This document shows positions 2,476 to 4,298 of a stretch of 4,298 nt of DNA, piece after piece. Position 1 is the stretch's first letter. Every line of letters starts with the position of its first letter. Below the pieces are notes generated by a model, which was not told where the DNA came from, ran no database searches, and worked only from the letters and a program-made list of their open reading frames with translations. Location of the stretch: the IMG/VR virus record IMGVR_UViG_2630968808_000006. The stretch is one strand, 5' to 3'. A program made the position numbers and the translations under genes. The DNA is from a virus (lineage: Duplodnaviria; Heunggongvirae; Uroviricota; Caudoviricetes).

Positions 2476-2752
2476 CCTGCAACTTGCTGTCAAAGGTGAA
2501 TACTTCGATGCCATGATTCGCGGGGAGAAAACGGAAGAGTATCGCCTGTGTAATGACTACTGGAAAAAGCGCCTCGTTAACCGTAAGTATGACCGCCTGA
2601 TTATCACAAAGGGATATCCGAAGCGCGACGATTCCAGCCGTAGAATTGATGTTCCGTATGACGGATATGAAATCAAGACAATCACACATCCGCACTTCGG
2701 CGATAAACCGGTAAAGGTGTTCGCGATAAAGGTGAATATCAGCAATGAATAA
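2468..2752 (+). CDS. 94-aa ASCH/PUA-like (DUF3850-like) small protein in the slot lambda uses for ea8.5
   Basis: GTG at 2468 preceded by AGGAGG (2456-2461) with 6 nt spacing; overlaps the upstream stop by 8 nt (GTGGCTAA). N-terminus LQLAVKGEYFDAMIRGEKTEEYR fits the ASCH-type pattern (L.L....YF.A...G.KT.E.R). Only one Cys, so probably not the zinc-binding lambda Ea8.5 fold. Confidence 0.65.
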   Translation: MANLQLAVKGEYFDAMIRGEKTEEYRLCNDYWKKRLVNRKYDRLIITKGYPKRDDSSRRIDVPYDGYEIKTITHPHFGDKPVKVFAIKVNISNE

Positions 2753-2785
2753 CAATCCTCGCACTCGCGGGGATTTCTTTTATCT

Positions 2786-2812
2786 GAACTCGCTACGGCG
2801 GGTTTTGTTTTA
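2786..2812 (+). terminator. weak hairpin plus U-rich tract after the 94-aa ORF (possible attenuator)
   Basis: CTCGC (2789-2793), loop TACG, GCGGG (2798-2802) with one G-U pair, followed by TTTTGTTTTAT. Short stem, interrupted T-run. Confidence 0.2.
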
Positions 2813-2824
2813 TGGAGATGATAA

Positions 2825-2992
2825 ATGCACTTCCGAGTCACAGGTGAATGGAATGGAGAGCCATTCAACAGAGTTATCGAAGCAGAGGACATCAACGACT
2901 GCTATAACCACTGGATGATATGGGCGCAGATAGCGCATGCAGACGTAACCAATATTCGAATTGAAGAACTGAAAGAACACCAAGCCGCCTGA
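2825..2992 (+). CDS. 55-aa hypothetical protein, positional equivalent of the small ORF between ea8.5 and xis in lambda
   Basis: Not in the ORF track (below its length cutoff); read by hand: ATG at 2825 is 7 nt after GGAG (2814-2817); translation MHFRVTGEWNGEPFNRVIEAEDINDCYNHWMIWAQIAHADVTNIRIEELKEHQAA; TGA stop (2990-2992) lies in the loop of the terminator hairpin. Distance to xis and int matches my recollection of the lambda map. Confidence 0.55.
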   Translation: MHFRVTGEWNGEPFNRVIEAEDINDCYNHWMIWAQIAHADVTNIRIEELKEHQAA

Positions 2993-3004
2993 TGGCGGTT
3001 TTTT
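2982..3004 (+). terminator. Rho-independent terminator (GC stem, UGAU loop, T6 tail)
   Basis: GCCGCC (2984-2989), loop TGAT (2990-2993), GGCGG (2994-2998) giving 5 G-C pairs plus flanking G-U and A-U pairs, followed by six T (2999-3004). On the minus strand the stem is followed by non-T sequence, so it is + strand specific. Confidence 0.6.
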
Positions 3005-3005
3005 C

Positions 3006-3045
3006 TTGCGTGTAATTGCGGAGACTTTGCGATGTACTTAACACT
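3006..3045 (+). promoter_or_regulatory. cII-activated pI-type promoter: TTGC-N6-TTGC box flanking the -35, with the -10 and start point inside the first codons of xis
   Basis: TTGC (3006-3009), GTGTAA, TTGC (3016-3019) is the tetranucleotide direct repeat recognised by lambda CII at pRE, pI and paQ; it lies about 13-26 nt upstream of the xis ATG (3032), matching the lambda pI arrangement. The -10 hexamer is not unambiguous (candidates TGTACT or TACTTA around 3033-3040). Confidence 0.6.
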
Positions 3046-3250
3046 TCAGGAGTGGAACGCACGCCAGCGGCGCCCAAGAAGCCTTGAAACAGTTCGTCGA
3101 TGGGTACGCGAGTGCAGGATATTCCCTCCTCCGGTTAAGGATGGAAGAGAGTATCTGTTCCACGAATCAGCGGTAAAGGTTGACTTAAATCGACCAGTAA
3201 CAGGTAGCCTTTTGAAGAGGATCAGAAATGGGAAGAAGGCGAAGTCATGA
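3032..3250 (+). CDS. xis: excisionase Xis (72 aa), lambda type
   Basis: ATG at 3032 is 8 nt after GGAG (3020-3023); product MYLTLQEWNARQRRPRSLETVRRWVRECRIFPPPVKDGREYLFHESAVKVDLNRPVTGSLLKRIRNGKKAKS matches lambda Xis as I recall it; overlaps int by 23 nt as in lambda. Confidence 0.95.
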   Translation: MYLTLQEWNARQRRPRSLETVRRWVRECRIFPPPVKDGREYLFHESAVKVDLNRPVTGSLLKRIRNGKKAKS

Positions 3251-4298
3251 GCGCCGGGATTTACCCCCTAACCTTTATATAAGAAACAATGGATATTACT
3301 GCTACAGGGACCCAAGGACGGGTAAAGAGTTTGGATTAGGCCGAGACAGGCGAATCGCAATCACTGAAGCTATACAGGCCAACATTGAGTTATTTTCAGG
3401 ACACAAACACAAGCCTCTGACAGCGAGAATCAACAGTGATAATTCTGTTACGTTACATTCATGGCTTGATCGCTACGAAAAAATCCTCGCCAGCAGAGGA
3501 ATCAAGCAGAAGACACTCATAAATTACATGAGCAAAATTAAAGCAATAAGGAGGGGTCTGCCTGATGCTCCACTTGAAGACATCACCACAAAAGAAATTG
3601 CGGCAATGCTCAATGGATACATAGACGAGGGCAAGGCGGCGTCAGCCAAGTTAATCAGATCAACACTGAGCGATGCATTCCGAGAGGCAATAGCTGAAGG
3701 CCATATAACAACAAACCCGGTCGCTGCCACTCGCGCAGCAAAATCAGAGGTAAGGAGATCAAGACTTACGGCTGACGAATACCTGAAAATTTATCAAGCA
3801 GCAGAATCATCACCATGTTGGCTTAGACTTGCAATGGAACTGGCTGTTGTTACCGGGCAGCGAGTTGGTGATTTATGCGAAATGAAGTGGTCTGATATCA
3901 TAGATGGCTATCTTTATGTCGAGCAAAGCAAAACCGGCGTAAAAATTGCCATCCCAACAACATTGCATGTTGATGCTCTTGGGATATCAATGAAGGAAAC
4001 ACTTGATAAATGCAAAGAGATTCTTGGCGGAGAAACCATAATTGCATCTACTCGTCGTGAACCGCTTTCATCCGGCACAGTATCAAGGTATTTTATGCGC
4101 GCACGAAAAGCATCAGGTCTTTCCTTCGAAGGGGATCCGCCTACCTTTCACGAGTTGCGCAGTTTGTCTGCAAGACTCTATGAGAAGCAGATAAGCGATA
4201 AGTTTGCTCAACATCTTCTCGGGCATAAGTCGGACACCATGGCATCACAGTATCGTGATGACAGAGGCAGGGAGTGGGACAAAATTGAAATCAAATAA
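3228..4298 (+). CDS. int: tyrosine site-specific integrase Int (356 aa), lambda type
   Basis: N-terminal arm-binding region MGRRRSHERRDLPPNLYIRNNGYYCYRDPRTGKEFGLG; catalytic residues at lambda Int positions: R in VTGQRVGDL (R212), H308-x-x-R311 in TFHELRSL, H333 and Y342 in LLGHKSDTMASQY (positions counted from the translation). GAGG RBS 7 nt upstream. Complete ORF ending TAA at 4296-4298. Confidence 0.97.
   Translation: MGRRRSHERRDLPPNLYIRNNGYYCYRDPRTGKEFGLGRDRRIAITEAIQANIELFSGHKHKPLTARINSDNSVTLHSWLDRYEKILASRGIKQKTLINYMSKIKAIRRGLPDAPLEDITTKEIAAMLNGYIDEGKAASAKLIRSTLSDAFREAIAEGHITTNPVAATRAAKSEVRRSRLTADEYLKIYQAAESSPCWLRLAMELAVVTGQRVGDLCEMKWSDIIDGYLYVEQSKTGVKIAIPTTLHVDALGISMKETLDKCKEILGGETIIASTRREPLSSGTVSRYFMRARKASGLSFEGDPPTFHELRSLSARLYEKQISDKFAQHLLGHKSDTMASQYRDDRGREWDKIEIK

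Follow-up and report, generated by a model that had tools for sequence, protein, structure and literature searches.

A probable orthologue of the lambda/434 t'I terminator adjoins the CII box of the pI promoter in a lambdoid xis-int segment

Results

Positions 2982-3004 of the window (the whole stretch of Caudoviricetes DNA analysed, 4,298 nt from IMG/VR record IMGVR_UViG_2630968808_000006) most probably represent the orthologue of the lambda/434 t'I element, an intrinsic (Rho-independent) terminator standing before the CII-activated promoter pI, with the two elements being independent neighbours at a mosaic boundary. Judging from sequence and comparison, we give this reading a probability of roughly 0.88. 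The anatomy and orientation of the site, its identity to lambda, its prior annotation and the conservation of its structure were all read directly from the sequences and records and are described below.

Gene content of the window

All window genes lie on the + strand and comprise an Ead/Ea22-like gene, several small ORFs, a gene for a DUF551 protein, a 94-aa ORF, ORF55, xis and int (Pfam; Table 1). ORF55 gave no Pfam family match, and int overlaps xis by 23 nt. The window Xis was 100% identical to the Xis of HK022, 434 and HK97 and 98.6% identical to that of lambda. Over ~550 nt (window 2749-3300 against lambda 28810-29361) the sequence was ~97% identical to lambda and to many other lambdoid phages, with lambda and HK022 among the close relatives of the segment. 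Because of its gene order, strand and lambda identity, the segment is read as the far end of an early operon of the leftward pL type, which here runs rightward. In the collection, no phage covered 80% or more of the window, which is therefore considered a mosaic. Of 5426 complete E. coli genomes, 1804 had a match covering at least 80% of the 131-nt stretch at 2940-3070. Neither a nut site nor an N gene was found within the 4.3-kb window, and cII too lies outside it.

Only ~180 nt upstream of t'I, the tL4 site gave the best fold score in the window (2745-2815; -24.4 kcal/mol, z = -5.4, equalled by 0 of 200 shuffles). This site is annotated as 'tL4 terminator' in HK022 (X51962.1) and as 't-L4' in 434 (M60848.1), and it is kept in lambda, 434 and HK022.

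Table 1. Features of the ORF55-xis-int segment, with positions in the window.
Feature	Position	Strand	Description and basis
tL4	2754-2805	+	Two tandem terminator-like hairpins (2754-2775, 2786-2805) with T-rich tails, between the 94-aa ORF and ORF55
ORF55	2825-2992	+	55 aa; ORF list; 'ORF55' in M60848.1, hypothetical protein in lambda NC_001416
t'I, predicted intrinsic terminator	2982-3004	+	Stem 2982-2989 / 2994-3001, loop TGAT 2990-2993, T-run 2999-3004; sequence, fold, scan, lambda identity, 434 annotation
CII recognition repeat TTGC-GTGTAA-TTGC	3006-3019	+	Flanks the pI -35 region; sole match in the window; same as the lambda box
xis	3032-3250	+	Excisionase, 72 aa; Pfam Exc, E = 3.9e-41
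Predicted pI -10 hexamer TGTACT	3033-3038	+	Overlaps xis codons 1-3; aligned with lambda pRE (box, 13 nt, AAGTAT)
Predicted pI start T3045	3045	+	13 nt inside xis; equals lambda 29065; box-to-start distance 39 nt, as in pRE
int	3228-4298	+	Lambda-type tyrosine integrase, 356 aa; Pfam Phage_integrase and lambda integrase arm-DNA-binding domain; megablast to lambda int

Anatomy and folding of the t'I hairpin

Direct reading of the sequence placed the 5' arm of the hairpin, AAGCCGCC, at 2982-2989 and the 3' arm, GGCGGTTT, at 2994-3001. The resulting stem of 8 bp (five G-C, one G-U and two A-U pairs) with its 4-nt loop has the stem and loop expected of an intrinsic terminator. The run of six Ts at 2999-3004, which is followed by C3005 and then TTGC, sits on the transcribed strand, that of all window genes, and would supply the U-tract. 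The RNA of 2975-3010 was predicted to fold into this very hairpin (-13.0 kcal/mol, z = -2.9; equalled by 3 of 200 shuffles), compared to a poorer fold of -10.4 kcal/mol (z = -1.7) and a weak T-tail on the reverse strand of the region. The stem and U-tract are typical for an intrinsic terminator and not exceptional, with moderate stability. ORF55 runs into the structure, its end codons Gln-Ala-Ala-stop forming the 5' arm and loop.

A pattern scan flagged 2982-3004 as a terminator-like site on the + strand. The window held 10 such sites compared to 4.5 +/- 2.2 expected, an approximately twofold enrichment over shuffles, so that a single scan match is weak evidence. As a positive control, the same scan of lambda 27000-46000 reported the t'I site (29128-29109) together with sites that match the positions of toop, tR2, tL3 and timm. 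An Rfam search of 2600-3300 returned sub-threshold chance matches only, none of them covering the t'I hairpin. The preliminary description, made from the bare sequence, had placed a T6-tailed + strand hairpin ending at 3004, with the ORF55 stop in its loop and the first TTGC of the CII box at 3006, and had proposed RNA folding of 2975-3010 as a check; sequence reading and folding agreed base for base with the claimed hairpin, TGA 2990-2992 lies within the loop, C3005 is the single base between T-run and box, and every coordinate given there was correct.

The CII box and the predicted pI promoter

The two halves of the CII box (TTGC 3006-3009 and TTGC 3016-3019) enclose GTGTAA, and the box is identical to that of lambda pI, which begins at 29104 on the complement. 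A search of both strands for TTGC-N6-TTGC found one match in the window; the motif alone is not rare, since 0.43 matches were expected by chance and at least one occurred in 69 of 200 shuffles. The remainder of the promoter was placed by alignment with lambda pRE, with which it shares a 13-nt spacer after the second TTGC, the -10 hexamer and a start ~7 nt further on, a likeness of geometry and not of activity. The 39-nt box-to-start distance was taken from a pRE start that we assume to lie at 38343. Because the predicted start lies 13 nt inside xis (ATG 3032), a transcript from pI could not encode Xis. A start near 3045 within xis, giving Int without Xis, had been proposed earlier; it fits the pRE-aligned geometry, and the homologous site is annotated as a CII-controlled pI.

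A weak inverted repeat (ATTGCGGA / TTTGCGAT) was also seen at 3015-3033, covering the second TTGC, the xis Shine-Dalgarno sequence GGAG and the start codon of xis. This repeat could pair the xis ribosome-binding site in read-through transcripts. Bases of the same repeat are labelled 'pseudo-CII sites' in OL657226.1.

Prior annotation of the site

Two terminators are annotated on this strand in the 434 int-xis record M60848.1, 't-L4' upstream of ORF55 and 't'-I' ending 25 nt before the xis ATG. The complete 434 genome (OL657226.1, 2022) has a terminator with the note 'PMID:6305007' adjoining a 'pI promoter; CII-controlled', and also marks a 'CII binding site' and a 'minus_35_signal pI' beside the terminator. 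No terminator or pI feature is given at the t'I site in the lambda record J02459.1. In the copy of J02459.1 at hand, many CDS product names are shifted or duplicated, several exo-xis ORFs being named 'xis (excision;72)' and O and P 'cII'.

The annotated 434 t'-I and the window hairpin occupy orthologous positions, 48 nt and 50 nt upstream of the xis ATG, respectively. In the tabulation of loci, window and lambda were identical in the 45 nt that precede the CII box and in 34 nt counted from its first base, the lone G-to-A difference (3041) falling shortly after them. In lambda the stem lies at 29128-29109, the T-run extends to 29106 and the box begins at 29104. The terminator reference cited in the 2022 record of 434 is presumably an article by Benedik, Mascarenhas and Campbell. 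This article, from 1983, is said to have appeared in Virology 126:658 and by its title reportedly concerns the integrase promoter and the T'I terminator in lambda and 434. On the basis of the GenBank feature tables and this title, t'I beside pI is an already described element, and its reading from the window is correct and not new.

Three hairpin classes at one junction

Loci were collected with the CII box alone or the box plus the xis start as anchor, such that the upstream sequence was not presupposed. Among 164 genuine xis-upstream loci, three different hairpins preceded the CII box. Class A (AAGCCGCC-TGAT-GGCGGTTT) was found in lambda and in this window, and hundreds of lambdoid phages and prophages retain the site. 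Class B (GCCGCA-TCAA-TGCGGC) was found in 434 and HK022, and class C (AACCAGC-CTTGC-GCTGGTT) in Salmonella phage 29485 and its relatives, whose Xis is 80% identical. In all three classes a run of four to seven T comes after the hairpin, and a single C (rarely A) separates it from TTGC.

Stem pairs were changed on both sides, with C-G replaced by A-T at the loop-closing pair, C-G by G-C and G-C by A-T in class C, and C-G by T-A in a single class-B variant (L110); one stem pair runs G-T, G-C, A-T across the classes. In total, four stem positions had changed on both sides over classes A, B and C and L110, the pattern of compensatory change, as counted on a hand-made structural alignment (MAFFT set class C one column out of register). 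The sole variant that breaks a pair, G2984T (3 loci), weakens the outer stem. The retention of structure while the sequence changes supports the hairpin as a real terminator.

Species-representative genomes, scanned with the box and the xis start as anchor, gave 21 matches (loci L127-L147) and no further diversity; the matches lie for the most part in non-enteric assemblies and look like lambda control-DNA contamination. These assemblies include Shewanella, Pseudomonas, Bradyrhizobium, Kitasatospora, Oceanobacillus and Enterococcus, and most of the contigs are of low coverage and either short or ~48.4-48.5 kb in length.

Distant Xis homologues, at 42-43% identity, came with different surroundings. 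In Flyfo siphovirus Tbat2_3 (585-665 of its locus, L125; Xis 43% identical), two hairpin-plus-T-run elements lie just upstream of xis and are followed by overlapping TTGC repeats with N4 and N6 spacing, the nearest N6 pair lying ~9 nt further on. Any start there would fall upstream of xis, and the logic of Int without Xis is therefore inapplicable. A Providencia phage with such a homologue had no intergenic space upstream of xis. Because these distant modules differ, the arrangement appears confined to the enterobacterial lambda-type module.

ORF114 and the hairpin-box junction

Phages 434 and HK022 retain the ORF55 hairpin, but ORF114, an ORF of 114 codons, comes next, and it is the class-B hairpin beyond it that adjoins pI. 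Lambda and the window have no ORF114, and there pI adjoins the ORF55 hairpin directly. The ends of the ORF114 insertion or deletion fall in the T-run/TTG after each hairpin (434 locus, L002, 537-1000, and HK022 locus, L001, against window 3001-3008). The ORF114 leader, TTG-GAGAC-N5-ATG, resembles the xis leader, GGAGAC-N6-ATG, suggesting that presence or absence of ORF114 arose by insertion or deletion at short homologies.

The overlap of stop codon and hairpin followed the arrangement of the genes. The hairpin adjoining pI lies 59 nt after the ORF114 stop in 434 and HK022, and ~60 nt after the upstream stop in Salmonella phage 29485. From this comparison, a stop codon in the loop appears to be a peculiarity of the lambda-type arrangement and not a conserved feature.

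Two other CII boxes of lambda, at 38382 and 44186, were not preceded by a hairpin or a T-run at the equivalent position. We take these boxes to be those of pRE and paQ, and since both do without either element, a hairpin or T-run is not required for activation by CII.

Discussion

In lambda, joint production of Xis and Int requires antiterminated pL transcripts, and CII-activated pI yields Int alone; polymerase modified by N overrides the terminators of the pL operon. By analogy, an unmodified polymerase arriving from the exo-xis region of the present phage would release its transcript at ~3003-3007 and would not enter xis-int. A polymerase modified by the antitermination system of the phage (N/nut in lambda) would read through and allow both Xis and Int to be made for excision. 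CII would bind 3006-3019 around the -35 region and recruit polymerase to TGTACT (3033-3038), and transcription from pI, starting at about T3045 inside xis, would give Int only. The N-dependent read-through in this scheme is borrowed from lambda, as the antitermination system lies outside the window, and HK022 antiterminates with put RNA and not with N. For this phage we infer termination in vivo, read-through upon antitermination, CII dependence and the start point from this correspondence.

The likely role of t'I, together with tL4, would be to keep non-antiterminated transcription out of xis-int. Such transcription might stem from leaky pL transcripts or from promoters in the exo-xis stretch. 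If it were not stopped ahead of pI, it would enter xis-int and might cause the prophage to be excised at the wrong time. As part of the control of lambda integration the site is textbook knowledge, and its confirmation here adds no new biology, but a previously described regulatory element proved recoverable from raw sequence. The finding of three different hairpins at one junction in different lambdoid lineages is a small addition.

The junction itself invites the question of whether terminator and promoter work together. Coupling of t'I and pI, under which the one-base spacing would be selected and the T-tract DNA (-47 to -42 from the start) would serve pI, is in our view unlikely. The T-tract might act as an UP-like contact for the alpha subunit of RNA polymerase or as a bend aiding CII, or termination right at the box might shield it from occlusion by unmodified elongating polymerase. 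Three unrelated hairpins do meet the box at one T-run-C/A-TTGC junction whose spacing is invariant over ~150 loci, and the T-run is located where a proximal UP subsite is generally expected; the pRE and paQ boxes, however, have neither hairpin nor T-run at the equivalent position, and an UP-element role of the T-run was set aside as having no comparative support. The constancy of the junction follows equally from shared descent and from recombination at the T-run/TTG microhomology, which together are sufficient to explain the constant one-base spacing, and 434 and HK022 carry both hairpins around ORF114. We also find it very hard to credit that the inverted repeat arose by chance, or is a mere scar of recombination at a module boundary, and does not terminate transcription. 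With terminator-like sites in twofold excess over expectation a single match can still be chance, and the ORF114 insertion or deletion at exactly this place makes the site a mosaic junction. Against this stand the compensatory changes, the three independent hairpins that each have a T-run on the transcribed strand, the poorer fold and weaker T-tail of the reverse strand, and the annotation of the site as a terminator with a literature reference. t'I and pI are best read as independent adjacent elements at a mosaic module boundary and not as one coupled device. The 'decision point' of the preliminary description was an overstatement, as it is CII that makes the decision and pI that carries it out, and an action of terminator and promoter on each other would be conjecture.

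The position of the ORF55 stop raises a further reading, in which t'I would be a translation-sensitive attenuator: a ribosome finishing ORF55 would cover the 5' arm and block termination, so that only untranslated or uncoupled transcripts would stop before xis. The TGA in the loop and the last three ORF55 codons in the 5' arm fit this idea, as does the same overlap of stop and hairpin in lambda. However, the overlap does not accompany the function throughout, being absent from the 434/HK022 and Salmonella 29485 types, and terminators that overlap stop codons are common and usually incidental. A ribosome terminating at the ORF55 stop could interfere with hairpin formation and reduce termination on translated transcripts, but this is unlikely to be a selected property, and we regard the attenuator as quite improbable.

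Comparison with known systems

The arrangement resembles the terminators of moron-type cassettes in lambdoid phages, in that each small ORF (ORF55, and ORF114 in 434 and HK022) has a hairpin and T-run of its own after it, and two such hairpins border the ORF114 insertion or deletion. No dedicated ORF55 promoter was identified in the window, and the resemblance is therefore an analogy only.

Compared to lambda pI, the window has the same TTGCGTGTAATTGC box, the same spacer, the same -10 hexamer TGTACT and a start within xis. The difference is a single synonymous substitution, G to A at 3041, which turns TTGACA into TTAACA and falls between the -10 hexamer and the start. The A variant at 3041 is common to HK022 and ~10 of ~120 tabulated viral loci. 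TTGACA, present in lambda xis at this position, is a perfect -35 consensus, and the window has TTAACA.

The window element shares with the t'I of lambda and 434 its location immediately ahead of xis and the CII box of pI, its strand and its hairpin-plus-T-run design. It equals the lambda hairpin base for base, with no difference of substance, whereas in 434 and HK022 the hairpin adjoining pI is of another sequence (GCCGCATCAATGCGGC) and is separated from the ORF55 hairpin by ORF114. With the lambda pL-operon terminators tL1, tL2, tL3 and tL4 it has in common the anatomy of an intrinsic terminator and the leftward strand, and differs from them in being the last terminator before xis-int and in that it alone touches a CII-dependent promoter.
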